From contig OZ024741.1 in assembly GCA_964016885.1 (NCBI GenBank), forward strand, positions 188,046,001 through 188,110,000: a stretch of 64,000 bases of DNA, given 5' to 3'. The position numbers and the translations under genes were made by a program. Origin of the DNA: Eledone cirrhosa (taxonomy: Eukaryota). The stretch's first letter is position 1, and each line of letters opens with the position of its first letter. Below the pieces are notes generated by a model. It was not told the DNA's origin and ran no database searches. It saw only the letters and a program-made list of their open reading frames with translations. Shown here piece after piece: positions 3,337 to 35,079 of this stretch.

Positions 3337-3489
<153 letters not shown>

Positions 3490-4302
3490 AGGTGTGGAAG
3501 AGATCAGCTGTGTCCCAACCTGGAGAAGGATGTGCTCCGCCAAGGTTTAAATGCCCAAGCACGCTGTTTATCAGAATGGTCTCCCTACGACTCAACCATG
3601 AATTAAAGGCCTTCTACATTTACTTAGCATCAATGAGTACGAGCGGGAATCGTTCAGGTCGTAACATATGTGTTACAATAGATCTATGGGTCACACCTAA
3701 TCGTTCACCAGACTGCCTACGTACTAAAGGTCAACACCACTGTTTCTTATCTTACCTATGATAACCATTACTATTCATCCACTTAGATTAAATGCATGTA
3801 TGTATGGCCCCGTAACTCCTGATAGAGTCGTAGGGGTGCTGTATTGACATACGGCGTTTCTGGGGCATTTCAAGCCTGGCGGAGCCGCCCATCCCTCTCC
3901 AGGCCTGAGTATTGCAGACTTCTTCCAGAGAAAGATAGAAAGTGGAAATGAGTGGAAATGAGAAAGTAATCCACTTACATACAGCCATAGAACGGATTTC
4001 ATTTATAGAAACTACTACTACATACATACTCATTTTAATAGATAGACACATACATTGCATGAACATATTCATACACACGTACAAACACATATAGAATACA
4101 AACAAGAAGCGTTTTTTTTATATGTATAAATACATACATGTATTATACATAATATGTACACCGTTCGTGCTAAATATATTTTACCTACAGCAATGTCGTC
4201 TGCTTCTTTCATTATTCAATATATTACGAAGTTCAGTTGTTTGTTCTTTTGTTGAATATTTTTTCTTTCTTGTTCTTCTTGTCATTATTGTTGTCATTAT
4301 TG

Positions 4303-4349
<47 letters not shown>

Positions 4350-4562
4350 GAATGCCATGGTTGACGGAGGCTCGGCTCTGTAAGGTATAGTAATTTTTAA
4401 CCGTTAAAACAATTGTAAATTGTTTAAAACTTGAACCAAATTGTTGATAAAGACACCCTCCTCCTCGTGAGAGGGGTCTTTCTGTCCGTTATTTGGCCCT
4501 TCGGGGTTAAATAGCCAGTTATTGGGGTTTTGTACCCAAAATTTCATTTTAAACAAAAAAAC

Positions 4563-6662
4563 ATGGCTACCAAAAAAAAAAAATTTCATACGTCACTCCC
4601 ACTCATTCCGTCTTCTTCTTCCTCAATCATCACTACAGGAGAGAGAAGATTGTCTCTCTCCCTCCCTTCTTTAAATGTGTCTCTCTCCCTACCTTCTCTT
4701 TCGCAAGCGACGAAAGAAAAGAAAAGTCTCGTGCAAAGCGTGCAAGGTTTCTCCACGACGACGACGACAGCGACGAAACAGGTGTGCGGGAAATACGAAA
4801 ACCCAGTTCATTCGTCTGACGTCAGGAATAATAGCAGTAGCAGCCGTAATAACAACAGCAACAGTGACAATGAAAACAACAGTAGCAGCCGCAACAGCAT
4901 CACCAGCAGCATAAACAACAACACCATTAGCAGCAGCAACACCAACAACAACCACAGCAACAGCGGCGGAGGCAGTAGTCGTAGTACCTGCAGCAACAAC
5001 AAAAGTACCAGCAGCTCTGACGACAACAACAACAGCAGAGAAAAACCAATCTCATTTGCAGGTATTGCGAAAAACCTGGAAACAATCCTCATAACAAATG
5101 AGGAATTAGAGGAAGCGAAGAAGATGGTGACAAAGAACGGACACCGAGCAATCTGCAAGGCAGCGAAAAATTTTTTCGAAACCCAAGAGCACTGTACGGT
5201 CACGTACCGTACAGTAAGTACAAAATCCCGTAGGGTGGAAAGAGCCACAGAGGCCCAAATACAAAAAGCCTTGGGGTCTGTGTGGCAGAGGAAAACGCAC
5301 ATCACCCGAGGCAAAAAATACGCCACCGTAGACGTACTTTTTGCCACACCCCAGGAGGCAAAGGCCCAATCAGTAGTGACCCTAAGGAGCGAGGAAATGG
5401 TGTTGGTGCCCTCCTACTGCGGGCAAAAAATTGTGAGGGTCAAACTGACCCACGTCCCCCCCGGAATGACCCCTTCTTGGCTGGCCGCGTCTGTCCTCGT
5501 CGGAATCGAGGACAAAACAACTGTACTGCAAGTACAGAAAAAAGTAAGAGAAGATTGGGTCGGCTCCTCCATTGAGATGCTAATACAAACCAACCAGGAG
5601 TGCATCGAAGCTATCCCGGATGTGATAGACTTCGATAACGGCACTCAACTGCCCATAAGTGTTGAGGGCAAACGCCCGAAATGCTTTCGCTGTGGATCGA
5701 AGACTCACCTCAGGGCCTTCTGCAACGAGAAGACCCTGAGAAAGGAGAAAACCCCCCTCCTCCCGAATCCGGTTCCACGGCTACCAGCAACAGGACAAGC
5801 GGCAACCAGGAACGATAGGTCCGTGGCACCCATACCCACTCCACGGAAATCAAAGACAGCAGCAGCAGTGGAAATATTAACAACAACAACAGCAATACCA
5901 AATGCAGCTGCAACAGAGACTCCAGTGCAAACATCACCAACAACAACAAGTGAAAGAGTGGAGCTGGTACCCCTCCCCGACCTTACAGAATCAGACATGG
6001 AGTGTGAGGTGGGAGAGGGATGGCAAAAGGTCTCAAGAAGGCACAAACGCAGAAGCAGCGCATCGTCGCCTTTGAAAAGGGAGGAAAGAAATGAGAAAAG
6101 GGTAAAGTCTACTGCAAAGAGACCCACAGCAGCAACACCACCAACACCATCACCACCCACACCAGCACCACCATCACCACCGGCGACAACCCCACCGCCA
6201 ACAACACCTTCAACACCACCACCACAAGCACCAACATCGCAAACACAACAACAAAACACACACACCCAGCAACAACGACAAGAAAATAGCAGAACCACAC
6301 CCCACCCCCAGAAAAACAAATGCACGGCAATAAACACACACAACAAGAAACTAATGACTTACATAATTGAACACACAGACATTTCACAACAGGACTACAT
6401 AATACCAGCACCAATCAAAACGCCAACTAACATAAGACTGCTAAAAATAGCACAGAAACAATACACAAACATTAAAACGAAATTCCCCAACGCAGTTGGT
6501 GATTTCAGGGACCTAGGAGGAACCATTAATCGAAGAGTATATTCAGACATTCTCTTAGAAGAGCCGACGACCAGCCGAAGGGACGATTCAACGGTCCCTT
6601 CACCAGACGATCAAGTGAAAAGGGATGTAAAAACCATCCCTCCTCTACCAAAAATACGGTAA
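4563..6662 (+). CDS. ORF1 nucleic-acid-binding protein (699 aa from first ATG)
   Basis: CFRCGSKTHLRAFC = CX2CX4HX4C knuckle; S/N-rich and P/T-rich tracts; basic patch RRHKRR. Confidence 0.88.
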   Translation: MATKKKKFHTSLPLIPSSSSSIITTGERRLSLSLPSLNVSLSLPSLSQATKEKKSLVQSVQGFSTTTTTATKQVCGKYENPVHSSDVRNNSSSSRNNNSNSDNENNSSSRNSITSSINNNTISSSNTNNNHSNSGGGSSRSTCSNNKSTSSSDDNNNSREKPISFAGIAKNLETILITNEELEEAKKMVTKNGHRAICKAAKNFFETQEHCTVTYRTVSTKSRRVERATEAQIQKALGSVWQRKTHITRGKKYATVDVLFATPQEAKAQSVVTLRSEEMVLVPSYCGQKIVRVKLTHVPPGMTPSWLAASVLVGIEDKTTVLQVQKKVREDWVGSSIEMLIQTNQECIEAIPDVIDFDNGTQLPISVEGKRPKCFRCGSKTHLRAFCNEKTLRKEKTPLLPNPVPRLPATGQAATRNDRSVAPIPTPRKSKTAAAVEILTTTTAIPNAAATETPVQTSPTTTSERVELVPLPDLTESDMECEVGEGWQKVSRRHKRRSSASSPLKREERNEKRVKSTAKRPTAATPPTPSPPTPAPPSPPATTPPPTTPSTPPPQAPTSQTQQQNTHTQQQRQENSRTTPHPQKNKCTAINTHNKKLMTYIIEHTDISQQDYIIPAPIKTPTNIRLLKIAQKQYTNIKTKFPNAVGDFRDLGGTINRRVYSDILLEEPTTSRRDDSTVPSPDDQVKRDVKTIPPLPKIR

Positions 6663-6697
6663 GTGGTCTTTCCCATCTTTTCCACTCTATTTTAAAC

Positions 6698-9600
6698 ATG
6701 ACCTCACTCAGAATAGGCAGCATAAATGCGCGTGGCTTGGGGTCGTCATGGAAGCAGGGTCACCTGCTCAACGACCTCAGGTCACTAAACATAGATGTAG
6801 TGGCCATCAGCGAGACCAGAATCTCCGAAGCACGGGCCTTCGCACCGATCTTCGGCGGCTACGATGTGTACGCATCTCCCAGCCGTCCTGGATCGGGTGG
6901 AGGAGTTGCTGTGCTTTTTCGGAGAGGTTTGGATCTCGCCATACGGGCCATCTTCCTGGACCCAGAGGGTAAGCTGGTGGTGCTGGACGTGACCAGCGGA
7001 GACGGGCAAGCTTTCAGGCTAGTGGCCGTCTATGCCCCGACAGGAGCAGGGCGGCCTGATTTCTTCCGGCGTCTGGAGACCTTTCTTGGAACGTCGCGCT
7101 CTTTAGTGTTAGTGGGCGACTGGAACGGGATCTTAGATGCACGCTGGGACTGTGTGGGATTAGCGGATAGGGGTGGAGGGTGCAAGAGCCTCACCAACCT
7201 GCTCAGGCGTTTTGAACTGTCTGACAGGTACCGATTGGATTTCCCGAATGTGCCAATGTGGACTTGGACAAACCGCATAGGGTCATCCAGATCATATCTA
7301 GATAGAGTATTTTGTAGGGAAATAGATAGGTCTAGCATAGGCTGTCCACAATTCAAGATAGTCAGCTACACGGACCACAAATTCGTGATCTGTGTGCTTG
7401 ACTTAGATAGGCTTCATAGACGAGGACCCGGCTACTGGAAGCTAAACGCGTCCTTACCAGCGCGCAAGGCCTACAGAGACCGGATTAGCGAACTAGTTAA
7501 GCGGGCGTTGACGGGGGCCATCGTCAACAACAAGTGGTGGTTTGCTCTGAAAAGAGCGATTAGAATAGAATCGATTAGGTTTAGTAAGGCTTTAGCAATA
7601 GAGAAAAATAGAGCAGAGGGAGAACTAGTTAGAAAATTAGACGAGGCGCTTAGCAAAGGCATTGCGACCGACGTGCTTGCGGCGAAATTGGCCCTTGACC
7701 AATTCTTCAATGCAAAGCACGAAGGCTGCGTTGTCAGAGCTAGGGTGCGTGCTCTCAGACACGAGGGGACGAAAGCCGTTCAATGGGCCCGAGTGGCGGA
7801 GGCGCGTCGTGGCAACAAAGCCACGATCCGGTCTTTGGTGGACCACGACGGGCGCATGCTACTCGATCCCGGGCAAATGTGTGAAGCTTTTCAGCGACAC
7901 TTCGCTCAGCTGTTCGGGGGCAGCGGGGGGCCGGGTAGAGGGATGGACTTTAGTGTCTACCTCGACGGACTGCCGCGGCTCTCGGCCACTGAGGCGAAGT
8001 GTTGCGAAAAGCCGATAACAGCCGCTGAAGTAAGGGAGGCAATGACTGGCTGCACAAGGGGTAAATCGCCTGGTTTGGATGGTCTGCCCTATGAACTTTA
8101 CGTACAGATGCCAGACTTGTTCGGAGGCCTCTTGGCGGACGTCTACTGCAACTGGCAACAGAACGGGAGAATTCCCAGTTCTGTGAGCCGAGGAGCGGTG
8201 GCACTGCTGAGAAAGGATCCGAACAAGGGGGATAACATAGACAATTTCCGGCCCATAACTCTGCTAAACACAGAGTTTAAGATTTTGGCCAAGGTGCTAG
8301 CAAAGAGGTTGGCGCTTGTCGTTGGTGGTCTGGTGGGAGAGGCGCAGACATGCGCCATTCCCGACAGATCCATCCACGACAACCTCCACCTCATGCGATA
8401 CATCGTAGAGAGGGTAGCTAGGGAACCTGGCACGGGTGGGTCCTTGATCAATTTAGATCAGTCGAAAGCTTTCGATAGGGTCGACCATCGTTACCTAGCG
8501 GCAGTCCTGAGGGCGGCTGGCTTTGGGCCCGTCTTCAGAGGCTGGATCGCTGCCATGCACAGCGACATCTGCTCTGTGGTGAGAGTGAACGGTCACCTGT
8601 CGGAACCGTTCAACATCATGCGCTCGGTCCGCCAAGGATGTCCCCTCTCGTCCCTCTTGTACGTATTGACTCTCGAGCCATTACTGCACAAACTGGAGAC
8701 GTTGAGGGGAGTCCCGCGCGAACTAGGATGCGGAAGATCCGTGTCAGCATATGCGGACGATGTCACCGTAGTGGTGTCGAACGCCAAACACATCGAGGCG
8801 ATCGGCACTACACTAAGAGAATACGAAGCGGTGACAGGAGCAATGATCAACCAGGAAAAGTCAGTGGGCCTGCAGCTCGGCACCTGGAGAGGCAGGTCCA
8901 TGCCGTCCAACAGCGTCGTCGGGCGCTGGACGGACGGACCGGTTAAATTGCTAGGGGTCTGGTTCGGTCCGGACCTCCAGACGGACAAAAACTGGGACGA
9001 GGTGACGAGCAGGGTGGCTTCTCTCACCCAGAAATGGGCGGAGAGGAAGCTATCCCTGAAAGGTCGAGCGGAGGTGGCTAACGCGTACATCGCGTCTGTC
9101 ATCTGCTACCGCCTAACCGTCGTACCTTGTCCTAAGCCTCGCCTGACTGCGCTGGAGCGTTTGCTCTTTCGCTTTTTGTGGAAGGGACGTGCTCCGATGG
9201 TCAGGCGGTCCATCTGTTGTCAACACCCGCTACGTGGAGGGCTGGGCATGCCGTGGCTGATGATGCGCAGGCACGCGCTCAGGCTACGACATCTCCACCT
9301 CTTCCTCGACGGTGATCAGGTGTGGTCGCCGTTTGCTAGACGCGTTTTTCCCCAGCTCGTTTCCTTGACGGAGCTGCAGTCCTGGGTCAAGCGAAGACCG
9401 AGAGGGAGCGCCTGGAGACTGGAATGTCTTCAGGCGCTCACAGCCCTCGACCAATCGGGCAATGTGATCGGTGGAAACTCCACCTCGGCGTTCTATAGAG
9501 GATTAGTGGAGGGGAAGAGCGACGACGTACTTGGGGAAACTCTAGGCGTCGACGAAAATCAACTAGCCAATCTCTTCGGAAGAACCTTCGGGCCAGGGCC

Positions 9601-10117
9601 TATGGACAACTTCCAGAAATCTCTGGCCTGGCAGTGCTACCGAGGAGCCTTGCCAGTTCGGGATAAACTCTACAGGCATGGAGGTGCCGTCAGCCGGGCA
9701 TGTCCGAGATGCGCGCAGGGCGACGAAACCGTCCTGCACGCACTCGTCCAGTGTCCGAAAATTGCTGACTTGTGGGTTTATGTCGAACACCTGCTGTCGC
9801 GTTTAGGACGGATCCAGTTATCATCTGAGTCTATCGTGAGGATTGCCCCGCCCTCCTCCTTTAGCCGGGAAGGGCAGGCAGTTTTTATCTGTCTGGTGGC
9901 CATGGCGAAAGAGATAGTATGGTGGACACGTTTGAAAGGGCTGAAGACGAGCACTTACCTCTTCGGTGATGCTCTGATTGACTTTTTCAAATTTCATTTG
10001 AAAAGGAAAATCAGAGTAGAGAAGGAAGTGCTCTCTTCCCAGCATTTTGTTGAAAGATGGGTGAGAGAAGCAAGAATGGCCCGAGTGAATGGGCCGACTC
10101 TGAGTATATATCTGTAA
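6698..10117 (+). CDS. ORF2: APE endonuclease, reverse transcriptase, C-terminal zinc finger (1139 aa)
   Basis: SINARG, ISET, VYAP, GDWN, YLDR, TDH; KSPGLDGL, FRPITLLN, KAFDRV, VRQGCPLS, YADD; CPRC..ETVLHALVQC; GPGYWKLN typical of L1/Tx1. Confidence 0.95.
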   Translation: MTSLRIGSINARGLGSSWKQGHLLNDLRSLNIDVVAISETRISEARAFAPIFGGYDVYASPSRPGSGGGVAVLFRRGLDLAIRAIFLDPEGKLVVLDVTSGDGQAFRLVAVYAPTGAGRPDFFRRLETFLGTSRSLVLVGDWNGILDARWDCVGLADRGGGCKSLTNLLRRFELSDRYRLDFPNVPMWTWTNRIGSSRSYLDRVFCREIDRSSIGCPQFKIVSYTDHKFVICVLDLDRLHRRGPGYWKLNASLPARKAYRDRISELVKRALTGAIVNNKWWFALKRAIRIESIRFSKALAIEKNRAEGELVRKLDEALSKGIATDVLAAKLALDQFFNAKHEGCVVRARVRALRHEGTKAVQWARVAEARRGNKATIRSLVDHDGRMLLDPGQMCEAFQRHFAQLFGGSGGPGRGMDFSVYLDGLPRLSATEAKCCEKPITAAEVREAMTGCTRGKSPGLDGLPYELYVQMPDLFGGLLADVYCNWQQNGRIPSSVSRGAVALLRKDPNKGDNIDNFRPITLLNTEFKILAKVLAKRLALVVGGLVGEAQTCAIPDRSIHDNLHLMRYIVERVAREPGTGGSLINLDQSKAFDRVDHRYLAAVLRAAGFGPVFRGWIAAMHSDICSVVRVNGHLSEPFNIMRSVRQGCPLSSLLYVLTLEPLLHKLETLRGVPRELGCGRSVSAYADDVTVVVSNAKHIEAIGTTLREYEAVTGAMINQEKSVGLQLGTWRGRSMPSNSVVGRWTDGPVKLLGVWFGPDLQTDKNWDEVTSRVASLTQKWAERKLSLKGRAEVANAYIASVICYRLTVVPCPKPRLTALERLLFRFLWKGRAPMVRRSICCQHPLRGGLGMPWLMMRRHALRLRHLHLFLDGDQVWSPFARRVFPQLVSLTELQSWVKRRPRGSAWRLECLQALTALDQSGNVIGGNSTSAFYRGLVEGKSDDVLGETLGVDENQLANLFGRTFGPGPMDNFQKSLAWQCYRGALPVRDKLYRHGGAVSRACPRCAQGDETVLHALVQCPKIADLWVYVEHLLSRLGRIQLSSESIVRIAPPSSFSREGQAVFICLVAMAKEIVWWTRLKGLKTSTYLFGDALIDFFKFHLKRKIRVEKEVLSSQHFVERWVREARMARVNGPTLSIYL

Positions 10118-10387
10118 ACTAAAGGTGGAAAACTGGGAGAGGGCACTTGCCTTGGTGGTCAGGGTCATTGTGGCTTTTTACTGGGCTTTCTCCACAAATG
10201 TCCCTCCGAAGTCTCCCCCCTATTGGGGAATTTTTCATTGTTATTTTCATTGTTATTTTTGTTACATCCTCTGTTTTTGTTTTTTTTACACGCAGAAATG
10301 CCCATTTGTACCGTCCTGCATTGTCCTGCACTGTCCTTAATGTCTACTTTATGTAAACCCTTGTGGTTAATAAAGAAATCATTATTG

Positions 10388-10434
<47 letters not shown>

Positions 10435-10647
10435 GAATGCCATGGTTGACGGAGGCTCGGCTCTGTAAGGTATAGTAATTTTTAACCGTTAAAACAATTG
10501 TAAATTGTTTAAAACTTGAACCAAATTGTTGATAAAGACACCCTCCTCCTCGTGAGAGGGGTCTTTCTGTCCGTTATTTGGCCCTTCGGGGTTAAATAGC
10601 CAGTTATTGGGGTTTTGTACCCAAAATTTCATTTTAAACAAAAAAAC

Positions 10648-12747
10648 ATGGCTACCAAAAAAAAAAAATTTCATACGTCACTCCCACTCATTCCGTCTTC
10701 TTCTTCCTCAATCATCACTACAGGAGAGAGAAGATTGTCTCTCTCCCTCCCTTCTTTAAATGTGTCTCTCTCCCTACCTTCTCTTTCGCAAGCGACGAAA
10801 GAAAAGAAAAGTCTCGTGCAAAGCGTGCAAGGTTTCTCCACGACGACGACGACAGCGACGAAACAGGTGTGCGGGAAATACGAAAACCCAGTTCATTCGT
10901 CTGACGTCAGGAATAATAGCAGTAGCAGCCGTAATAACAACAGCAACAGTGACAATGAAAACAACAGTAGCAGCCGCAACAGCATCACCAGCAGCATAAA
11001 CAACAACACCATTAGCAGCAGCAACACCAACAACAACCACAGCAACAGCGGCGGAGGCAGTAGTCGTAGTACCTGCAGCAACAACAAAAGTACCAGCAGC
11101 TCTGACGACAACAACAACAGCAGAGAAAAACCAATCTCATTTGCAGGTATTGCGAAAAACCTGGAAACAATCCTCATAACAAATGAGGAATTAGAGGAAG
11201 CGAAGAAGATGGTGACAAAGAACGGACACCGAGCAATCTGCAAGGCAGCGAAAAATTTTTTCGAAACCCAAGAGCACTGTACGGTCACGTACCGTACAGT
11301 AAGTACAAAATCCCGTAGGGTGGAAAGAGCCACAGAGGCCCAAATACAAAAAGCCTTGGGGTCTGTGTGGCAGAGGAAAACGCACATCACCCGAGGCAAA
11401 AAATACGCCACCGTAGACGTACTTTTTGCCACACCCCAGGAGGCAAAGGCCCAATCAGTAGTGACCCTAAGGAGCGAGGAAATGGTGTTGGTGCCCTCCT
11501 ACTGCGGGCAAAAAATTGTGAGGGTCAAACTGACCCACGTCCCCCCCGGAATGACCCCTTCTTGGCTGGCCGCGTCTGTCCTCGTCGGAATCGAGGACAA
11601 AACAACTGTACTGCAAGTACAGAAAAAAGTAAGAGAAGATTGGGTCGGCTCCTCCATTGAGATGCTAATACAAACCAACCAGGAGTGCATCGAAGCTATC
11701 CCGGATGTGATAGACTTCGATAACGGCACTCAACTGCCCATAAGTGTTGAGGGCAAACGCCCGAAATGCTTTCGCTGTGGATCGAAGACTCACCTCAGGG
11801 CCTTCTGCAACGAGAAGACCCTGAGAAAGGAGAAAACCCCCCTCCTCCCGAATCCGGTTCCACGGCTACCAGCAACAGGACAAGCGGCAACCAGGAACGA
11901 TAGGTCCGTGGCACCCATACCCACTCCACGGAAATCAAAGACAGCAGCAGCAGTGGAAATATTAACAACAACAACAGCAATACCAAATGCAGCTGCAACA
12001 GAGACTCCAGTGCAAACATCACCAACAACAACAAGTGAAAGAGTGGAGCTGGTACCCCTCCCCGACCTTACAGAATCAGACATGGAGTGTGAGGTGGGAG
12101 AGGGATGGCAAAAGGTCTCAAGAAGGCACAAACGCAGAAGCAGCGCATCGTCGCCTTTGAAAAGGGAGGAAAGAAATGAGAAAAGGGTAAAGTCTACTGC
12201 AAAGAGACCCACAGCAGCAACACCACCAACACCATCACCACCCACACCAGCACCACCATCACCACCGGCGACAACCCCACCGCCAACAACACCTTCAACA
12301 CCACCACCACAAGCACCAACATCGCAAACACAACAACAAAACACACACACCCAGCAACAACGACAAGAAAATAGCAGAACCACACCCCACCCCCAGAAAA
12401 ACAAATGCACGGCAATAAACACACACAACAAGAAACTAATGACTTACATAATTGAACACACAGACATTTCACAACAGGACTACATAATACCAGCACCAAT
12501 CAAAACGCCAACTAACATAAGACTGCTAAAAATAGCACAGAAACAATACACAAACATTAAAACGAAATTCCCCAACGCAGTTGGTGATTTCAGGGACCTA
12601 GGAGGAACCATTAATCGAAGAGTATATTCAGACATTCTCTTAGAAGAGCCGACGACCAGCCGAAGGGACGATTCAACGGTCCCTTCACCAGACGATCAAG
12701 TGAAAAGGGATGTAAAAACCATCCCTCCTCTACCAAAAATACGGTAA
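10648..12747 (+). CDS. ORF1, copy 2
   Basis: Same protein as copy 1. Confidence 0.88.
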   Translation: MATKKKKFHTSLPLIPSSSSSIITTGERRLSLSLPSLNVSLSLPSLSQATKEKKSLVQSVQGFSTTTTTATKQVCGKYENPVHSSDVRNNSSSSRNNNSNSDNENNSSSRNSITSSINNNTISSSNTNNNHSNSGGGSSRSTCSNNKSTSSSDDNNNSREKPISFAGIAKNLETILITNEELEEAKKMVTKNGHRAICKAAKNFFETQEHCTVTYRTVSTKSRRVERATEAQIQKALGSVWQRKTHITRGKKYATVDVLFATPQEAKAQSVVTLRSEEMVLVPSYCGQKIVRVKLTHVPPGMTPSWLAASVLVGIEDKTTVLQVQKKVREDWVGSSIEMLIQTNQECIEAIPDVIDFDNGTQLPISVEGKRPKCFRCGSKTHLRAFCNEKTLRKEKTPLLPNPVPRLPATGQAATRNDRSVAPIPTPRKSKTAAAVEILTTTTAIPNAAATETPVQTSPTTTSERVELVPLPDLTESDMECEVGEGWQKVSRRHKRRSSASSPLKREERNEKRVKSTAKRPTAATPPTPSPPTPAPPSPPATTPPPTTPSTPPPQAPTSQTQQQNTHTQQQRQENSRTTPHPQKNKCTAINTHNKKLMTYIIEHTDISQQDYIIPAPIKTPTNIRLLKIAQKQYTNIKTKFPNAVGDFRDLGGTINRRVYSDILLEEPTTSRRDDSTVPSPDDQVKRDVKTIPPLPKIR

Positions 12748-12782
12748 GTGGTCTTTCCCATCTTTTCCACTCTATTTTAAAC

Positions 12783-16472: not shown

Positions 16473-16519
<47 letters not shown>

Positions 16520-22556: not shown

Positions 22557-22603
<47 letters not shown>

Positions 22604-24916: not shown

Positions 24917-24951
24917 GTGGTCTTTCCCATCTTTTCCACTCTATTTTAAAC

Positions 24952-27900
24952 ATGACCTCACTCAGAATAGGCAGCATAAATGCGCGTGGCTTGGGGTCGT
25001 CATGGAAGCAGGGTCACCTGCTCAACGACCTCAGGTCACTAAACATAGATGTAGTGGCCATCAGCGAGACCAGAATCTCCGAAGCACGGGCCTTCGCACC
25101 GATCTTCGGCGGCTACGATGTGTACGCATCTCCCAGCCGTCCTGGATCGGGTGGAGGAGTTGCTGTGCTTTTTCGGAGAGGTTTGGATCTCGCCATACGG
25201 GCCATCTTCCTGGACCCAGAGGGTAAGCTGGTGGTGCTGGACGTGACCAGCGGAGACGGGCAAGCTTTCAGGCTAGTGGCCGTCTATGCCCCGACAGGAG
25301 CAGGGCGGCCTGATTTCTTCCGGCGTCTGGAGACCTTTCTTGGAACGTCGCGCTCTTTAGTGTTAGTGGGCGACTGGAACGGGATCTTAGATGCACGCTG
25401 GGACTGTGTGGGATTAGCGGATAGGGGTGGAGGGTGCAAGAGCCTCACCAACCTGCTCAGGCGTTTTGAACTGTCTGACAGGTACCGATTGGATTTCCCG
25501 AATGTGCCAATGTGGACTTGGACAAACCGCATAGGGTCATCCAGATCATATCTAGATAGAGTATTTTGTAGGGAAATAGATAGGTCTAGCATAGGCTGTC
25601 CACAATTCAAGATAGTCAGCTACACGGACCACAAATTCGTGATCTGTGTGCTTGACTTAGATAGGCTTCATAGACGAGGACCCGGCTACTGGAAGCTAAA
25701 CGCGTCCTTACCAGCGCGCAAGGCCTACAGAGACCGGATTAGCGAACTAGTTAAGCGGGCGTTGACGGGGGCCATCGTCAACAACAAGTGGTGGTTTGCT
25801 CTGAAAAGAGCGATTAGAATAGAATCGATTAGGTTTAGTAAGGCTTTAGCAATAGAGAAAAATAGAGCAGAGGGAGAACTAGTTAGAAAATTAGACGAGG
25901 CGCTTAGCAAAGGCATTGCGACCGACGTGCTTGCGGCGAAATTGGCCCTTGACCAATTCTTCAATGCAAAGCACGAAGGCTGCGTTGTCAGAGCTAGGGT
26001 GCGTGCTCTCAGACACGAGGGGACGAAAGCCGTTCAATGGGCCCGAGTGGCGGAGGCGCGTCGTGGCAACAAAGCCACGATCCGGTCTTTGGTGGACCAC
26101 GACGGGCGCATGCTACTCGATCCCGGGCAAATGTGTGAAGCTTTTCAGCGACACTTCGCTCAGCTGTTCGGGGGCAGCGGGGGGCCGGGTAGAGGGATGG
26201 ACTTTAGTGTCTACCTCGACGGACTGCCGCGGCTCTCGGCCACTGAGGCGAAGTGTTGCGAAAAGCCGATAACAGCCGCTGAAGTAAGGGAGGCAATGAC
26301 TGGCTGCACAAGGGGTAAATCGCCTGGTTTGGATGGTCTGCCCTATGAACTTTACGTACAGATGCCAGACTTGTTCGGAGGCCTCTTGGCGGACGTCTAC
26401 TGCAACTGGCAACAGAACGGGAGAATTCCCAGTTCTGTGAGCCGAGGAGCGGTGGCACTGCTGAGAAAGGATCCGAACAAGGGGGATAACATAGACAATT
26501 TCCGGCCCATAACTCTGCTAAACACAGAGTTTAAGATTTTGGCCAAGGTGCTAGCAAAGAGGTTGGCGCTTGTCGTTGGTGGTCTGGTGGGAGAGGCGCA
26601 GACATGCGCCATTCCCGACAGATCCATCCACGACAACCTCCACCTCATGCGATACATCGTAGAGAGGGTAGCTAGGGAACCTGGCACGGGTGGGTCCTTG
26701 ATCAATTTAGATCAGTCGAAAGCTTTCGATAGGGTCGACCATCGTTACCTAGCGGCAGTCCTGAGGGCGGCTGGCTTTGGGCCCGTCTTCAGAGGCTGGA
26801 TCGCTGCCATGCACAGCGACATCTGCTCTGTGGTGAGAGTGAACGGTCACCTGTCGGAACCGTTCAACATCATGCGCTCGGTCCGCCAAGGATGTCCCCT
26901 CTCGTCCCTCTTGTACGTATTGACTCTCGAGCCATTACTGCACAAACTGGAGACGTTGAGGGGAGTCCCGCGCGAACTAGGATGCGGAAGATCCGTGTCA
27001 GCATATGCGGACGATGTCACCGTAGTGGTGTCGAACGCCAAACACATCGAGGCGATCGGCACTACACTAAGAGAATACGAAGCGGTGACAGGAGCAATGA
27101 TCAACCAGGAAAAGTCAGTGGGCCTGCAGCTCGGCACCTGGAGAGGCAGGTCCATGCCGTCCAACAGCGTCGTCGGGCGCTGGACGGACGGACCGGTTAA
27201 ATTGCTAGGGGTCTGGTTCGGTCCGGACCTCCAGACGGACAAAAACTGGGACGAGGTGACGAGCAGGGTGGCTTCTCTCACCCAGAAATGGGCGGAGAGG
27301 AAGCTATCCCTGAAAGGTCGAGCGGAGGTGGCTAACGCGTACATCGCGTCTGTCATCTGCTACCGCCTAACCGTCGTACCTTGTCCTAAGCCTCGCCTGA
27401 CTGCGCTGGAGCGTTTGCTCTTTCGCTTTTTGTGGAAGGGACGTGCTCCGATGGTCAGGCGGTCCATCTGTTGTCAACACCCGCTACGTGGAGGGCTGGG
27501 CATGCCGTGGCTGATGATGCGCAGGCACGCGCTCAGGCTACGACATCTCCACCTCTTCCTCGACGGTGATCAGGTGTGGTCGCCGTTTGCTAGACGCGTT
27601 TTTCCCCAGCTCGTTTCCTTGACGGAGCTGCAGTCCTGGGTCAAGCGAAGACCGAGAGGGAGCGCCTGGAGACTGGAATGTCTTCAGGCGCTCACAGCCC
27701 TCGACCAATCGGGCAATGTGATCGGTGGAAACTCCACCTCGGCGTTCTATAGAGGATTAGTGGAGGGGAAGAGCGACGACGTACTTGGGGAAACTCTAGG
27801 CGTCGACGAAAATCAACTAGCCAATCTCTTCGGAAGAACCTTCGGGCCAGGGCCTATGGACAACTTCCAGAAATCTCTGGCCTGGCAGTGCTACCGAGGA

Positions 27901-28371
27901 GCCTTGCCAGTTCGGGATAAACTCTACAGGCATGGAGGTGCCGTCAGCCGGGCATGTCCGAGATGCGCGCAGGGCGACGAAACCGTCCTGCACGCACTCG
28001 TCCAGTGTCCGAAAATTGCTGACTTGTGGGTTTATGTCGAACACCTGCTGTCGCGTTTAGGACGGATCCAGCTATCATCTGAGTCTATCGTGAGGATTGC
28101 CCCGCCCTCCTCCTTTAGCCGGGAAGGGCAGGCAGTTTTTATCTGTCTGGTGGCCATGGCGAAAGAGATAGTATGGTGGACACGTTTGAAAGGGCTGAAG
28201 ACGAGCACTTACCTCTTCGGTGATGCTCTGATTGACTTTTTCAAATTTCATTTGAAAAGGAAAATCAGAGTAGAGAAGGAAGTGCTCTCTTCCCAGCATT
28301 TTGTTGAAAGATGGGTGAGAGAAGCAAGAATGGCCCGAGTGAATGGGCCGACTCTGAGTATATATCTGTAA
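24952..28371 (+). CDS. ORF2 (APE-RT-ZnF), copy 4
   Basis: Same protein as copy 1. Confidence 0.95.
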   Translation: MTSLRIGSINARGLGSSWKQGHLLNDLRSLNIDVVAISETRISEARAFAPIFGGYDVYASPSRPGSGGGVAVLFRRGLDLAIRAIFLDPEGKLVVLDVTSGDGQAFRLVAVYAPTGAGRPDFFRRLETFLGTSRSLVLVGDWNGILDARWDCVGLADRGGGCKSLTNLLRRFELSDRYRLDFPNVPMWTWTNRIGSSRSYLDRVFCREIDRSSIGCPQFKIVSYTDHKFVICVLDLDRLHRRGPGYWKLNASLPARKAYRDRISELVKRALTGAIVNNKWWFALKRAIRIESIRFSKALAIEKNRAEGELVRKLDEALSKGIATDVLAAKLALDQFFNAKHEGCVVRARVRALRHEGTKAVQWARVAEARRGNKATIRSLVDHDGRMLLDPGQMCEAFQRHFAQLFGGSGGPGRGMDFSVYLDGLPRLSATEAKCCEKPITAAEVREAMTGCTRGKSPGLDGLPYELYVQMPDLFGGLLADVYCNWQQNGRIPSSVSRGAVALLRKDPNKGDNIDNFRPITLLNTEFKILAKVLAKRLALVVGGLVGEAQTCAIPDRSIHDNLHLMRYIVERVAREPGTGGSLINLDQSKAFDRVDHRYLAAVLRAAGFGPVFRGWIAAMHSDICSVVRVNGHLSEPFNIMRSVRQGCPLSSLLYVLTLEPLLHKLETLRGVPRELGCGRSVSAYADDVTVVVSNAKHIEAIGTTLREYEAVTGAMINQEKSVGLQLGTWRGRSMPSNSVVGRWTDGPVKLLGVWFGPDLQTDKNWDEVTSRVASLTQKWAERKLSLKGRAEVANAYIASVICYRLTVVPCPKPRLTALERLLFRFLWKGRAPMVRRSICCQHPLRGGLGMPWLMMRRHALRLRHLHLFLDGDQVWSPFARRVFPQLVSLTELQSWVKRRPRGSAWRLECLQALTALDQSGNVIGGNSTSAFYRGLVEGKSDDVLGETLGVDENQLANLFGRTFGPGPMDNFQKSLAWQCYRGALPVRDKLYRHGGAVSRACPRCAQGDETVLHALVQCPKIADLWVYVEHLLSRLGRIQLSSESIVRIAPPSSFSREGQAVFICLVAMAKEIVWWTRLKGLKTSTYLFGDALIDFFKFHLKRKIRVEKEVLSSQHFVERWVREARMARVNGPTLSIYL

Positions 28372-28641
28372 ACTAAAGGTGGAAAACTGGGAGAGGGCAC
28401 TTGCCTTGGTGGTCAGGGTCATTGTGGCTTTTTACTGGGCTTTCTCCACAAATGTCCCTCCGAAGTCTCCCCCCTATTGGGGAATTTTTCATTGTTATTT
28501 TCATTGTTATTTTTGTTACATCCTCTATTTTTGTTTTTTTTACACGCAGAAATGCCCATTTGTACCGTCCTGCATTGTCCTGCACTGTCCTTAATGTCTA
28601 CTTTATGTAAACCCTTGTGGTTAATAAAGAAATCATTATTG

Positions 28642-28688
<47 letters not shown>

Positions 28689-28901
28689 GAATGCCATGGT
28701 TGACGGAGGCTCGGCTCTGTAAGGTATAGTAATTTTTAACCGTTAAAACAATTGTAAATTGTTTAAAACTTGAACCAAATTGTTGATAAAGACACCCTCC
28801 TCCTCGTGAGAGGGGTCTTTCTGTCCGTTATTTGGCCCTTCGGGGTTAAATAGCCAGTTATTGGGGTTTTGTACCCAAAATTTCATTTTAAACAAAAAAA
28901 C

Positions 28902-31001
28902 ATGGCTACCAAAAAAAAAAAATTTCATACGTCACTCCCACTCATTCCGTCTTCTTCTTCCTCAATCATCACTACAGGAGAGAGAAGATTGTCTCTCTCC
29001 CTCCCTTCTTTAAATGTGTCTCTCTCCCTACCTTCTCTTTCGCAAGCGACGAAAGAAAAGAAAAGTCTCGTGCAAAGCGTGCAAGGTTTCTCCACGACGA
29101 CGACGACAGCGACGAAACAGGTGTGCGGGAAATACGAAAACCCAGTTCATTCGTCTGACGTCAGGAATAATAGCAGTAGCAGCCGTAATAACAACAGCAA
29201 CAGTGACAATGAAAACAACAGTAGCAGCCGCAACAGCATCACCAGCAGCATAAACAACAACACCATTAGCAGCAGCAACACCAACAACAACCACAGCAAC
29301 AGCGGCGGAGGCAGTAGTCGTAGTACCTGCAGCAACAACAAAAGTACCAGCAGCTCTGACGACAACAACAACAGCAGAGAAAAACCAATCTCATTTGCAG
29401 GTATTGCGAAAAACCTGGAAACAATCCTCATAACAAATGAGGAATTAGAGGAAGCGAAGAAGATGGTGACAAAGAACGGACACCGAGCAATCTGCAAGGC
29501 AGCGAAAAATTTTTTCGAAACCCAAGAGCACTGTACGGTCACGTACCGTACAGTAAGTACAAAATCCCGTAGGGTGGAAAGAGCCACAGAGGCCCAAATA
29601 CAAAAAGCCTTGGGGTCTGTGTGGCAGAGGAAAACGCACATCACCCGAGGCAAAAAATACGCCACCGTAGACGTACTTTTTGCCACACCCCAGGAGGCAA
29701 AGGCCCAATCAGTAGTGACCCTAAGGAGCGAGGAAATGGTGTTGGTGCCCTCCTACTGCGGGCAAAAAATTGTGAGGGTCAAACTGACCCACGTCCCCCC
29801 CGGAATGACCCCTTCTTGGCTGGCCGCGTCTGTCCTCGTCGGAATCGAGGACAAAACAACTGTACTGCAAGTACAGAAAAAAGTAAGAGAAGATTGGGTC
29901 GGCTCCTCCATTGAGATGCTAATACAAACCAACCAGGAGTGCATCGAAGCTATCCCGGATGTGATAGACTTCGATAACGGCACTCAACTGCCCATAAGTG
30001 TTGAGGGCAAACGCCCGAAATGCTTTCGCTGTGGATCGAAGACTCACCTCAGGGCCTTCTGCAACGAGAAGACCCTGAGAAAGGAGAAAACCCCCCTCCT
30101 CCCGAATCCGGTTCCACGGCTACCAGCAACAGGACAAGCGGCAACCAGGAACGATAGGTCCGTGGCACCCATACCCACTCCACGGAAATCAAAGACAGCA
30201 GCAGCAGTGGAAATATTAACAACAACAACAGCAATACCAAATGCAGCTGCAACAGAGACTCCAGTGCAAACATCACCAACAACAACAAGTGAAAGAGTGG
30301 AGCTGGTACCCCTCCCCGACCTTACAGAATCAGACATGGAGTGTGAGGTGGGAGAGGGATGGCAAAAGGTCTCAAGAAGGCACAAACGCAGAAGCAGCGC
30401 ATCGTCGCCTTTGAAAAGGGAGGAAAGAAATGAGAAAAGGGTAAAGTCTACTGCAAAGAGACCCACAGCAGCAACACCACCAACACCATCACCACCCACA
30501 CCAGCACCACCATCACCACCGGCGACAACCCCACCGCCAACAACACCTTCAACACCACCACCACAAGCACCAACATCGCAAACACAACAACAAAACACAC
30601 ACACCCAGCAACAACGACAAGAAAATAGCAGAACCACACCCCACCCCCAGAAAAACAAATGCACGGCAATAAACACACACAACAAGAAACTAATGACTTA
30701 CATAATTGAACACACAGACATTTCACAACAGGACTACATAATACCAGCACCAATCAAAACGCCAACTAACATAAGACTGCTAAAAATAGCACAGAAACAA
30801 TACACAAACATTAAAACGAAATTCCCCAACGCAGTTGGTGATTTCAGGGACCTAGGAGGAACCATTAATCGAAGAGTATATTCAGACATTCTCTTAGAAG
30901 AGCCGACGACCAGCCGAAGGGACGATTCAACGGTCCCTTCACCAGACGATCAAGTGAAAAGGGATGTAAAAACCATCCCTCCTCTACCAAAAATACGGTA
31001 A
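28902..31001 (+). CDS. ORF1, copy 5
   Basis: Same protein as copy 1. Confidence 0.88.
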   Translation: MATKKKKFHTSLPLIPSSSSSIITTGERRLSLSLPSLNVSLSLPSLSQATKEKKSLVQSVQGFSTTTTTATKQVCGKYENPVHSSDVRNNSSSSRNNNSNSDNENNSSSRNSITSSINNNTISSSNTNNNHSNSGGGSSRSTCSNNKSTSSSDDNNNSREKPISFAGIAKNLETILITNEELEEAKKMVTKNGHRAICKAAKNFFETQEHCTVTYRTVSTKSRRVERATEAQIQKALGSVWQRKTHITRGKKYATVDVLFATPQEAKAQSVVTLRSEEMVLVPSYCGQKIVRVKLTHVPPGMTPSWLAASVLVGIEDKTTVLQVQKKVREDWVGSSIEMLIQTNQECIEAIPDVIDFDNGTQLPISVEGKRPKCFRCGSKTHLRAFCNEKTLRKEKTPLLPNPVPRLPATGQAATRNDRSVAPIPTPRKSKTAAAVEILTTTTAIPNAAATETPVQTSPTTTSERVELVPLPDLTESDMECEVGEGWQKVSRRHKRRSSASSPLKREERNEKRVKSTAKRPTAATPPTPSPPTPAPPSPPATTPPPTTPSTPPPQAPTSQTQQQNTHTQQQRQENSRTTPHPQKNKCTAINTHNKKLMTYIIEHTDISQQDYIIPAPIKTPTNIRLLKIAQKQYTNIKTKFPNAVGDFRDLGGTINRRVYSDILLEEPTTSRRDDSTVPSPDDQVKRDVKTIPPLPKIR

Positions 31002-31036
31002 GTGGTCTTTCCCATCTTTTCCACTCTATTTTAAAC

Positions 31037-34000
31037 ATGACCTCACTCAGAATAGGCAGCATAAATGCGCGTGGCTTGGGGTCGTCATGGAAGCAGGGTC
31101 ACCTGCTCAACGACCTCAGGTCACTAAACATAGATGTAGTGGCCATCAGCGAGACCAGAATCTCCGAAGCACGGGCCTTCGCACCGATCTTCGGCGGCTA
31201 CGATGTGTACGCATCTCCCAGCCGTCCTGGATCGGGTGGAGGAGTTGCTGTGCTTTTTCGGAGAGGTTTGGATCTCGCCATACGGGCCATCTTCCTGGAC
31301 CCAGAGGGTAAGCTGGTGGTGCTGGACGTGACCAGCGGAGACGGGCAAGCTTTCAGGCTAGTGGCCGTCTATGCCCCGACAGGAGCAGGGCGGCCTGATT
31401 TCTTCCGGCGTCTGGAGACCTTTCTTGGAACGTCGCGCTCTTTAGTGTTAGTGGGCGACTGGAACGGGATCTTAGATGCACGCTGGGACTGTGTGGGATT
31501 AGCGGATAGGGGTGGAGGGTGCAAGAGCCTCACCAACCTGCTCAGGCGTTTTGAACTGTCTGACAGGTACCGATTGGATTTCCCGAATGTGCCAATGTGG
31601 ACTTGGACAAACCGCATAGGGTCATCCAGATCATATCTAGATAGAGTATTTTGTAGGGAAATAGATAGGTCTAGCATAGGCTGTCCACAATTCAAGATAG
31701 TCAGCTACACGGACCACAAATTCGTGATCTGTGTGCTTGACTTAGATAGGCTTCATAGACGAGGACCCGGCTACTGGAAGCTAAACGCGTCCTTACCAGC
31801 GCGCAAGGCCTACAGAGACCGGATTAGCGAACTAGTTAAGCGGGCGTTGACGGGGGCCATCGTCAACAACAAGTGGTGGTTTGCTCTGAAAAGAGCGATT
31901 AGAATAGAATCGATTAGGTTTAGTAAGGCTTTAGCAATAGAGAAAAATAGAGCAGAGGGAGAACTAGTTAGAAAATTAGACGAGGCGCTTAGCAAAGGCA
32001 TTGCGACCGACGTGCTTGCGGCGAAATTGGCCCTTGACCAATTCTTCAATGCAAAGCACGAAGGCTGCGTTGTCAGAGCTAGGGTGCGTGCTCTCAGACA
32101 CGAGGGGACGAAAGCCGTTCAATGGGCCCGAGTGGCGGAGGCGCGTCGTGGCAACAAAGCCACGATCCGGTCTTTGGTGGACCACGACGGGCGCATGCTA
32201 CTCGATCCCGGGCAAATGTGTGAAGCTTTTCAGCGACACTTCGCTCAGCTGTTCGGGGGCAGCGGGGGGCCGGGTAGAGGGATGGACTTTAGTGTCTACC
32301 TCGACGGACTGCCGCGGCTCTCGGCCACTGAGGCGAAGTGTTGCGAAAAGCCGATAACAGCCGCTGAAGTAAGGGAGGCAATGACTGGCTGCACAAGGGG
32401 TAAATCGCCTGGTTTGGATGGTCTGCCCTATGAACTTTACGTACAGATGCCAGACTTGTTCGGAGGCCTCTTGGCGGACGTCTACTGCAACTGGCAACAG
32501 AACGGGAGAATTCCCAGTTCTGTGAGCCGAGGAGCGGTGGCACTGCTGAGAAAGGATCCGAACAAGGGGGATAACATAGACAATTTCCGGCCCATAACTC
32601 TGCTAAACACAGAGTTTAAGATTTTGGCCAAGGTGCTAGCAAAGAGGTTGGCGCTTGTCGTTGGTGGTCTGGTGGGAGAGGCGCAGACATGCGCCATTCC
32701 CGACAGATCCATCCACGACAACCTCCACCTCATGCGATACATCGTAGAGAGGGTAGCTAGGGAACCTGGCACGGGTGGGTCCTTGATCAATTTAGATCAG
32801 TCGAAAGCTTTCGATAGGGTCGACCATCGTTACCTAGCGGCAGTCCTGAGGGCGGCTGGCTTTGGGCCCGTCTTCAGAGGCTGGATCGCTGCCATGCACA
32901 GCGACATCTGCTCTGTGGTGAGAGTGAACGGTCACCTGTCGGAACCGTTCAACATCATGCGCTCGGTCCGCCAAGGATGTCCCCTCTCGTCCCTCTTGTA
33001 CGTATTGACTCTCGAGCCATTACTGCACAAACTGGAGACGTTGAGGGGAGTCCCGCGCGAACTAGGATGCGGAAGATCCGTGTCAGCATATGCGGACGAT
33101 GTCACCGTAGTGGTGTCGAACGCCAAACACATCGAGGCGATCGGCACTACACTAAGAGAATACGAAGCGGTGACAGGAGCAATGATCAACCAGGAAAAGT
33201 CAGTGGGCCTGCAGCTCGGCACCTGGAGAGGCAGGTCCATGCCGTCCAACAGCGTCGTCGGGCGCTGGACGGACGGACCGGTTAAATTGCTAGGGGTCTG
33301 GTTCGGTCCGGACCTCCAGACGGACAAAAACTGGGACGAGGTGACGAGCAGGGTGGCTTCTCTCACCCAGAAATGGGCGGAGAGGAAGCTATCCCTGAAA
33401 GGTCGAGCGGAGGTGGCTAACGCGTACATCGCGTCTGTCATCTGCTACCGCCTAACCGTCGTACCTTGTCCTAAGCCTCGCCTGACTGCGCTGGAGCGTT
33501 TGCTCTTTCGCTTTTTGTGGAAGGGACGTGCTCCGATGGTCAGGCGGTCCATCTGTTGTCAACACCCGCTACGTGGAGGGCTGGGCATGCCGTGGCTGAT
33601 GATGCGCAGGCACGCGCTCAGGCTACGACATCTCCACCTCTTCCTCGACGGTGATCAGGTGTGGTCGCCGTTTGCTAGACGCGTTTTTCCCCAGCTCGTT
33701 TCCTTGACGGAGCTGCAGTCCTGGGTCAAGCGAAGACCGAGAGGGAGCGCCTGGAGACTGGAATGTCTTCAGGCGCTCACAGCCCTCGACCAATCGGGCA
33801 ATGTGATCGGTGGAAACTCCACCTCGGCGTTCTATAGAGGATTAGTGGAGGGGAAGAGCGACGACGTACTTGGGGAAACTCTAGGCGTCGACGAAAATCA
33901 ACTAGCCAATCTCTTCGGAAGAACCTTCGGGCCGGGGCCTATGGACAACTTCCAGAAATCTCTGGCCTGGCAGTGCTACCGAGGAGCCTTGCCAGTTCGG

Positions 34001-34456
34001 GATAAACTCTACAGGCATGGAGGTGCCGTCAGCCGGGCATGTCCGAGATGCGCGCAGGGCGACGAAACCGTCCTGCACGCACTCGTCCAGTGTCCGAAAA
34101 TTGCTGACTTGTGGGTTTATGTCGAACACCTGCTGTCGCGTTTAGGACGGATCCAGCTATCATCTGAGTCTATCGTGAGGATTGCCCCGCCCTCCTCCTT
34201 TAGCCGGGAAGGGCAGGCAGTTTTTATCTGTCTGGTGGCCATGGCGAAAGAGATAGTATGGTGGACACGTTTGAAAGGGCTGAAGACGAGCACTTACCTC
34301 TTCGGTGATGCTCTGATTGACTTTTTCAAATTTCATTTGAAAAGGAAAATCAGAGTAGAGAAGGAAGTGCTCTCTTCCCAGCATTTTGTTGAAAGATGGG
34401 TGAGAGAAGCAAGAATGGCCCGAGTGAATGGGCCGACTCTGAGTATATATCTGTAA
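31037..34456 (+). CDS. ORF2 (APE-RT-ZnF), copy 5
   Basis: Same protein as copy 1. Confidence 0.95.
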   Translation: MTSLRIGSINARGLGSSWKQGHLLNDLRSLNIDVVAISETRISEARAFAPIFGGYDVYASPSRPGSGGGVAVLFRRGLDLAIRAIFLDPEGKLVVLDVTSGDGQAFRLVAVYAPTGAGRPDFFRRLETFLGTSRSLVLVGDWNGILDARWDCVGLADRGGGCKSLTNLLRRFELSDRYRLDFPNVPMWTWTNRIGSSRSYLDRVFCREIDRSSIGCPQFKIVSYTDHKFVICVLDLDRLHRRGPGYWKLNASLPARKAYRDRISELVKRALTGAIVNNKWWFALKRAIRIESIRFSKALAIEKNRAEGELVRKLDEALSKGIATDVLAAKLALDQFFNAKHEGCVVRARVRALRHEGTKAVQWARVAEARRGNKATIRSLVDHDGRMLLDPGQMCEAFQRHFAQLFGGSGGPGRGMDFSVYLDGLPRLSATEAKCCEKPITAAEVREAMTGCTRGKSPGLDGLPYELYVQMPDLFGGLLADVYCNWQQNGRIPSSVSRGAVALLRKDPNKGDNIDNFRPITLLNTEFKILAKVLAKRLALVVGGLVGEAQTCAIPDRSIHDNLHLMRYIVERVAREPGTGGSLINLDQSKAFDRVDHRYLAAVLRAAGFGPVFRGWIAAMHSDICSVVRVNGHLSEPFNIMRSVRQGCPLSSLLYVLTLEPLLHKLETLRGVPRELGCGRSVSAYADDVTVVVSNAKHIEAIGTTLREYEAVTGAMINQEKSVGLQLGTWRGRSMPSNSVVGRWTDGPVKLLGVWFGPDLQTDKNWDEVTSRVASLTQKWAERKLSLKGRAEVANAYIASVICYRLTVVPCPKPRLTALERLLFRFLWKGRAPMVRRSICCQHPLRGGLGMPWLMMRRHALRLRHLHLFLDGDQVWSPFARRVFPQLVSLTELQSWVKRRPRGSAWRLECLQALTALDQSGNVIGGNSTSAFYRGLVEGKSDDVLGETLGVDENQLANLFGRTFGPGPMDNFQKSLAWQCYRGALPVRDKLYRHGGAVSRACPRCAQGDETVLHALVQCPKIADLWVYVEHLLSRLGRIQLSSESIVRIAPPSSFSREGQAVFICLVAMAKEIVWWTRLKGLKTSTYLFGDALIDFFKFHLKRKIRVEKEVLSSQHFVERWVREARMARVNGPTLSIYL

Positions 34457-34717
34457 ACTAAAGGTGGAAAACTGGGAGAGGGCACTTGCCTTGGTGGTCA
34501 GGGTCATTGTGGCTTTTTACTGGGCTTTCTCCACAAATGTCCCTCCGAAGTCTCCCCCCTATTGGGGAATTTTTCATTGTTATTTTCATTGTTATTTTTG
34601 TTACATCCTCTATTTTTGTTTTTTTTACACGCAGAAATGCCCATTTGTACCGTCCTGCATTGTCCTGCACTGTCCTTAATGTCTACTTTATGTAAACCCT
34701 TGTGGTTAATAAAGAAA

Positions 34718-34757
<40 letters not shown>

Positions 34758-35079
34758 CATTATTCCTGCTGACGTCACGTAGCCATTGAGTCAACAATAT
34801 TATACGATAGACTTCATTTAAAGAAGGCAAGTAGCAAAAAACAAAACAAAAAGCAAAAACAGCAACAACAATAACAACAGCTGGCAAATACTTCTTGCAT
34901 CAATAAATTATTAATTTGAAGCTTCTAATTATTGGTCTCGCCTATGTCAGTGGACTTGTATTGCGATGCTTAATCGGTCGTTCTAACGTCATCATTTGGC
35001 AGACATCTTGATTGGGCTTTTGTTTTGTTTCGTTTTGTTTTTTTGTGTGTATGTATGTGTGTTTTGTGTTTCAGCTAAA

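Follow-up and report, generated by a model that had tools for sequence, protein, structure and literature searches.

Long interspersed elements (LINEs) that stand head to tail inside a chromosome raise the question of how one complete copy comes to lie directly behind another. Such a case is found in a stretch of 64,000 nucleotides from Eledone cirrhosa (assembly GCA_964016885.1, contig OZ024741.1, positions 188,046,001 to 188,110,000; the whole of it is called the window below), in which five co-oriented copies of a 6,029-nt LINE lie in an (ATT)n microsatellite. The copies fairly probably form an array of a young LINE of the L1 group that seeks out (ATT)n and whose upstream members frequently bear the linker and the 5′ part of the neighbour downstream, likely by way of a complementary DNA (cDNA) that was primed upstream of the resident copy and finished on resident DNA. 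Both the choice of target and the stacking are variations on known themes, and the frequent, polar borrowing of 5′ ends is the new part.

The array in the window

The five copies begin with the same 7 bases, repeat with a period of 6,085 nt and are 99.8–99.95% identical to each other in a self-BLAST of the window (Table 1). Both open reading frames (ORFs), ORF1 of 699 and ORF2 of 1,139 amino acids (aa), are open in all five copies, so that the original prediction of five intact elements sharing orientation and start in (ATT)n is confirmed. The site is interstitial, at 188.05 Mb of a 416.3-Mb contig (C2; other contigs are abbreviated likewise) in a 3.0-Gb genome, and there are no runs of the telomere repeat TTAGG(G) in the window; a telomeric array was rejected on these two grounds.

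The four internal linkers are identical. Each consists of 56 nt, TCATTATTGTTGTT(ATT)14, and matches the end of the left-flank tract at 56 of 56 positions, interruption included. The GTTGTT interruption is absent from the tract on the right of the array. A junction of the element tail with GTTGTT occurs 10 times genome-wide, and since four of these occurrences are in the window array, the linkers appear to be of local origin and not to stem from an RNA tail. Copy 5 is likely the founder, because its 3′ tract is without the duplicated interruption.

Copies 1, 2, 4 and 5 differ pairwise at 0–3 positions: copies 2 and 4 are the same, copy 1 departs from both at two sites, and copy 5 at one. Comparisons with copy 3 give 14–15 differences; none of the 15 that separate it from copies 2 and 4 falls in nt 1–1235, and 11 of 13 codon changes are synonymous. 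All five copies have C at unit position 575, an allele present elsewhere in 3 of 109 copies, all of the copy 2 haplotype, and from nt 1236 on copy 3 matches a lineage that carries G575. Judged by these alleles, copy 3 is a chimera of a neighbour's 5′ part and a 3′ part of another lineage. Copies 1, 2 and 4 are too similar to separate a resident-templated route from duplication at the DNA level. RNA editing was considered as the source of the A-to-G differences in the window and was rejected, as there is no family-wide excess of A>G over T>C (19:18 and 199:148; p = 0.8 and 0.5).

Contigs built from short reads contain both the family and the unique left flank; all of them end at the linker and none spans the array, whose length is therefore unreadable from them. 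One read run (X4) covers the element and a short interspersed element (SINE), and not the unique flank.

Two classes of junction between neighbours

Neighbouring copies were compared in 23 arrays of the element's own type, which were the first matches listed in the searches and not a random draw; 43 pairs were counted, and eight pairs with fewer than 10 differences or with gaps above 300 nt were left out. Where the linker is fully duplicated, no difference appears before nt 350 in 12 of 14 pairs, with identity reaching as far as nt 2,923, and three further pairs chosen by their linker alone are identical to nt 1,988, 726 and 341. Overall, the first difference lies at or beyond nt 350 in 14 of the 17 duplicated-linker pairs versus 3 of the 26 others. 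Pairs with a short or unmatched linker differ before nt 350 in 23 cases of 26, from the very 5′ end, and these junctions look like ordinary double insertions. As the pairs of one array are not independent, the p-values (about 1e-3 to 1e-5) make the evidence look stronger than it is; when whole arrays are counted, about 8 of 23 show the 5′-block signature firmly.

Compared with similarly diverged pairs from different loci, 7 of 35 neighbours have in common a 5′ block of unusual length and 1 of 35 such a 3′ block. Moreover, array-private alleles are common to neighbours inside the 5′ block at C1:63.99, 94.64, 109.2, 114.8 and 118.96 Mb and at C11:28.28 Mb. In the duplicated-linker pairs, the linkers repeat the upstream tract with its private interruptions, up to the first base of the next copy. 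The duplicated stretch starts in an ATT tract and may hold a truncated copy (about 980 nt, with no substitutions and one 9-nt indel); elsewhere it includes 129–162 nt of host flank or even a whole copy (8,663 nt, one mismatch).

Both linkers at C1:57.09 Mb contain one and the same complex interruption. In this array, the downstream copy is old: over nt 1320–6029, no fewer than 136 differences separate it from every other copy. The two upstream copies bear its 5′ end, one as far as about nt 587 and the other to about nt 1298. Their 3′ parts are young and belong to two lineages, at 10 and 6 differences from copies elsewhere. For one of these pairs, the multiple alignment places three differences in nt 1–580, and the pairwise alignment places none before nt 588. 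The recombinant is likewise the upstream copy at C1:63.99 and 94.64 Mb.

Full-length own-type copies account for 16 of 22 resolved upstream neighbours (six more could not be resolved) versus a baseline of 24%, an excess that is confounded by age and is not proof. Five loci chosen for their GTTGTT tail yielded one array (C2:124.8 Mb), and the other four were uninformative.

Proposed mechanism

In 73 copies that have no full-length downstream neighbour, the tract before the head has a median of 8 units and the tract after the tail a median of 15. Such short upstream and long downstream tracts suggest a nick by the endonuclease close to the 5′ border of the tract and a usual duplication of about 6–9 ATT units. 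Each insertion would leave fresh targets, and the short linkers would come from plain double insertion. A second class of events would begin with target-primed reverse transcription in the tract that precedes a resident copy. There, the cDNA would come off its RNA and pair, at the point where it stopped, with the homologous resident downstream, whose DNA would then serve as template through the 5′ part and the linker as far as the nick. The expected products are a “giant target duplication” of 0.4–3 kb, once of 8.7 kb, a full-length chimera in place of an otherwise truncated copy, an exact copy of the linker and two new targets. Long arrays could result from repetition of such events, with some unequal exchange. 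On this view, the window array would have been founded by copy 5, and copy 3 would be a chimera of the resident-templated class.

Several observations speak against finishing of cDNA on the resident copy, or at least against its simplest form. The pairs of the window are not significant singly (p = 0.18). Two duplicated-linker pairs of the 21-copy array on C4 (see below) differ as early as nt 165, and one pair at C2:124.8 Mb differs at nt 342. Two pairs share rare alleles past their first difference (at 1795 and 4379 in one and at 3015 in the other), so that a single switch is insufficient for them. By a measure of polarity, the upstream copy is the likelier recombinant in only 8 of 12 pairs. 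Two members of the same C4 array are identical, which fits DNA-level exchange, and none of four pairs of a sister family (see below) has a clear 5′ block. Finally, no reads span any of the arrays.

Alternative explanations

The alternative that survives best has two steps. First, a copy would be duplicated together with its linker by unequal exchange between ATT tracts; later, an insertion primed at the tail of the upstream copy, or gene conversion, would replace the 3′ part of that copy. The end product would be the same, and the presumed nick site at the tail suits it. Three duplicated-linker pairs, two of them in the window, differ at only 1–2 sites; moreover, identical non-adjacent members exist, and haplotypes are mosaic family-wide. 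Nevertheless, this route is considered unlikely, because perfect duplicates are absent among the 43 adjacent pairs and because at C1:57.09 Mb both upstream copies are replaced, whereas the last, downstream one is spared. The 17 duplicated-linker pairs with at least 10 differences also stand against it.

Repeated insertion and nothing more, into a target that is saturated and renews itself (compare the R1 tandem arrays), may be a sufficient account of part of the material. The number of (ATT)6+ tracts is 44,770 as counted with a non-A end and about 57,000 after rough scaling with a biased calibration, to be compared with about 13,000 element ends. As such tracts are scarce, a 26% rate of tandem pairs is within about twofold of the rate expected from chance or target saturation; long arrays are not. 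The early differences within short-linker pairs (23 of 26) are also in keeping with this route, which is likely the one taken at short-linker junctions. It is insufficient for the duplicated-linker class, since it gives no account of neighbour-specific 5′ blocks or of duplicated host flank, and it leaves an array of 21 copies unexplained: at the observed 16% per junction, fewer than 1e-4 arrays of even 11 copies are expected. That nothing more than plain insertion is at work therefore seems improbable.

An assembly artefact, i.e., inflated copy number or mixed haplotypes in a 6-kb near-identical repeat, could be suspected from the identity of copies 2 and 4, the likeness of the four linkers and the lack of spanning reads. 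However, copy 3 anchors the middle of the array, arrays recur on five contigs, and their members differ by family alleles that are under purifying selection. Furthermore, no path jump between loci could yield a 3′ part of foreign origin with a locus-private linker behind it, and an artefact is thus very improbable. Least credible of all is a concatemer made in one event by a reverse transcriptase (RT) jumping between RNAs or from a read-through transcript, which would yield full-length head-to-tail copies and has a precedent in the template jumping reported for R2 proteins (PMC11371274), but is at odds with linkers that copy the local flank and with old and young lineages within one array. The reading of the array as a clonal satellite was rejected, too.

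The family, its targets and other arrays

Genome-wide, exact patterns match 1,604 5′ ends (26 nt) and 7,939 3′ ends, and a looser head pattern behind ATTATT has 2,616 matches, which corresponds to about 2,600 intact 5′ ends. Among the first 100 5′ ends listed on C1, 96 are preceded by at least three ATT units, and all 30 in a smaller sample stand behind ATT repeats; (CTT)n is often found upstream of the ATT tract. A 3′ end of the family lies no more than 120 nt upstream of 26 of the 100 sampled 5′ ends (28 by BLAST). The original prediction of an (ATT)n-targeting family that builds arrays at an interstitial site is thereby supported, and the sampled flanks of other copies, which were to be tabulated as a check, proved to be mostly ATT and not random targets. 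The prediction had also stressed the lack of 5′ truncation. This is true of the window, but its strangeness was overstated: full-length copies are common in the family, as a head stands at full-length distance from at least 40 of the 100 3′ ends sampled (24 of the own type and 16 of the sister family). At least three other repeat families, one of them SINE-like, start right behind the ATT tails of the element, and ATT tracts are shared landing sites for SINEs and other elements.

Both ORFs are kept in 65 of 114 near-full-length copies. Variants of ORF2 found in three or more copies are synonymous in 30 cases and non-synonymous in 10, versus 106:187 for singletons (79 ORFs). Since shared variants are mostly synonymous and many ORFs are intact, the family is, to judge by its sequences, young and under selection, in agreement with the activity first proposed for it.

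The C4 array (C4:357932481–358059752) contains 21 full-length copies in 127 kb, with 20 haplotypes and with both ORFs intact in 20 members; the marker GTT(ATT)6 is present in 13 of its 20 linkers. In one member, at C4:357974927, the first 207 nt contain 13 A-to-G changes; it shows only one other departure from the commonest letters of the array and is the sole copy of this kind among 114. It likely represents an A-to-I hyper-edited RNA fixed by reverse transcription, which suggests that arrays also take in whole RNA-derived copies.

The sister family has a different 5′ head behind ATTATT, with 2,462 matches. In twelve sister copies, similarity to the window element (93–96%) sets in only at unit position 2265; the sister family shares 96% of ORF2, and the core of its ORF1 is 52% identical. 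By this comparison, one of the two lineages has recently acquired a new 5′ module. No own/sister chimeras were found in the 12 sister-headed copies, and no clear ones in the 114 own-headed copies.

It may be supposed, quite tentatively, that stacking serves as a recombination workshop, in which the finishing of cDNA on a resident is a main route by which truncated copies become intact and promoter and ORF1 modules are exchanged. Such a workshop might explain the sister family (about 2,460 copies), might represent the insertion-site route long proposed for L1 5′ recruitment and might, in view of the limpet relative described below, be conserved in molluscs. How a young 3′ end is joined to an older 5′ end in LINE lineages is an open question, for which PMC3600994 lists three models; with donor and product adjacent at many loci, the insertion-site model becomes countable, mappable and testable. 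A LINE would here be making kilobase tandem duplications, host DNA included, and blocks of intact elements of 30–127 kb inside chromosomes would offer a route from mobile element to satellite. The arrays are a likely source of active copies, and they put genome assembly and the use of ATT microsatellite markers in this group at risk.

Features of the element and of the window

In ORF2, the Pfam domains Exo_endo_phos (N-terminal, APE), RVT_1 and zf-RVT are recognised. Its similarity to human L1 ORF2p (E-value 3e-52) extends over aa 5–854, and that to R2 (1e-21) covers the RT only. The separate ORF1, the lack of long terminal repeats (LTRs) and the AATAAA signal at unit position 6020, followed by an (ATT)n tail, complete the picture of an element whose sequence supports membership in the L1 group of non-LTR retrotransposons. 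The narrower label “Tx1-type” given to it at first is borne out only as far as this group. ORF1 has a knuckle of the form CX2CX4HX4C at aa 374, and a CCHC zinc knuckle in ORF1 is a trait of the Tx1 clade. Proteins resembling ORF1 bear zf-CCHC and ZCCHC3-type RNA-binding domains, which is a lead only, and no named Tx1 reference is present among 20 homologous proteins looked up, nor did the searches for homologues yield a family name. Some LINEs begin with an HDV-like ribozyme at their exact 5′ end; here, the 5′ untranslated region (UTR) folds modestly (z = −2.5), and Rfam has no match to a ribozyme up to E = 10 in positions 4280–4620 of the window.

Table 1. Coordinates of the LINE array and its parts, counted from the first base of the window
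Feature	Position	Strand	Details
Left target tract	4294..4349	+	TCATTATTGTTGTT(ATT)14, template of the four linkers; linker suffix match 56/56
Copy 1	4350..10378	+	Full length; 5′ UTR 213 nt, ORF1, 35-nt spacer, ORF2, 3′ UTR 261 nt ending AATAAA
ORF1	4563..6662, 10648..12747, 16733..18832, 22817..24916, 28902..31001	+	699 aa; one CCHC knuckle at aa 374
ORF2	6698..10117, 12783..16202, 18868..22287, 24952..28371, 31037..34456	+	1,139 aa; APE endonuclease, RT (YADD at 685), zf-RVT
Linker 1	10379..10434	+	56 nt, copy of the left tract
Copy 2	10435..16463	+	Identical to copy 4; haplotype at most 1 nt from three copies at other loci
Linker 2	16464..16519	+	
Copy 3	16520..22547	+	Chimera by its alleles: nt 1–1235 as in its neighbours (rare allele at unit position 575 included); 14 substitutions from a different lineage thereafter
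Lineage-switch interval of copy 3	17094..17755	+	Unit positions 575–1236
Linker 3	22548..22603	+	
Copy 4	22604..28632	+	
Linker 4	28633..28688	+	
Copy 5	28689..34717	+	Likely founder
Right tail and tract	34718..34764	+	TC(ATT)12ATCATTATT

Outside the array, the window contains a decayed 3′ fragment of a related LINE on the minus strand (38800–39466; 70% aa identity over 92 residues) and a separate RT fragment on the plus strand (58966–59697). In the region 43863–47129, a 467-nt unit is repeated 5.9 times at 99% identity (44357–47090) between (AT)n runs, with an inverted copy of 394–500 nt at the left edge of the repeat. Inverted repeats of 696 nt (97%) with (AT)n ends bound the region 49336–54457, inside which lie an RT-like ORF (50706–52229, minus strand, RVT_1 at 1e-6) and an ORF of 201 aa.

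In the limpet Patella caerulea, a relative of ORF2 with 30% identity is represented by about 13 near-identical genes on one contig under neighbouring tags (SNE40_003393–003415); these locus tags, rather than DNA, suggest a tandem array. The element is also contained in read runs labelled as other organisms, as a high-copy diverged family in one (X7) and as long contigs about 99% alike at low depth in another (X5); kinship, contamination or transfer may account for either.

Comparison with known systems

Neither a Tx1-like family specific for (ATT)n nor LINE arrays whose 5′ ends derive from neighbours came up in a literature search that had most subscription papers and Repbase outside its reach. 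PMC4494074 describes Kibi on (TC)n, Koshi on (TTC)n, a crocodilian Tx1 on (TTCC)n/(TTTC)n and tandem SINEU around a target-site duplication (TSD), and PMC4640811 places the Tx1 clade among target-specific groups. Like these microsatellite-targeting LINEs, the present family is of the APE type, has two ORFs and strongly prefers a simple repeat, its targeting being far above the 20% criterion of target specificity used in PMC4494074. Unlike them, it targets (ATT)n, belongs to a mollusc and forms arrays of up to 21 intact copies. Thirteen recently active L1-Tx1 families are known from Octopus vulgaris (PMC13282606), and the accessible text mentions no targets or arrays for them.

Tandem R1 copies in Drosophila ribosomal DNA (rDNA) arise by insertion into the 5′ TSD, and R1 subfamilies rarely recombine (PMC2718515). 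More generally, tandems of transposable elements are formed by double insertion, those of non-LTR elements being mostly truncated (PMC5932611). The present arrays resemble R1 tandems in their head-to-tail order, in linkers made of duplicated target, in insertion upstream of a resident and in being expandable by unequal exchange. They differ in their dispersed interstitial sites, in their mostly full-length members and in a duplication that extends into the 5′ part of the resident. Neither the R1 clade nor a location in 28S rDNA applies, as ORF2 is L1-like and the flanks are microsatellite.

Gilbert et al. (2002 and 2005) reportedly obtained L1 chimeras through annealing of cDNA to nearby DNA. 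In tumours, 22 templated L1 insertions have been described, which resemble synthesis-dependent strand annealing, are rare and are mostly shorter than 250 bp (10.1101/2024.08.27.596794), and “anneal” 5′ junctions have been reported for R2 along with template jumping (PMC11371274). The route proposed here would resemble these cases: nascent cDNA pairs with homologous DNA at the insertion site, and the outcome is either a seamless 5′ junction or a duplication. Unlike the tumour set, the presumed events in E. cirrhosa are frequent, 0.4–8.7 kb long and inherited, and they produce intact elements. The recruitment of old 5′ ends by young 3′ ends in mouse L1, for which PMC3600994 gives its three models, was deduced from family consensus sequences, whereas here donor and product stand side by side.

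Finally, HeT-A, TART and TAHRE form head-to-tail non-LTR arrays at telomeres (10.1101/782904), as the present family does in the interior of a chromosome. Those elements belong to the Jockey clade, occupy chromosome ends and are often truncated, while the array described here is interstitial and would grow at internal nicks.

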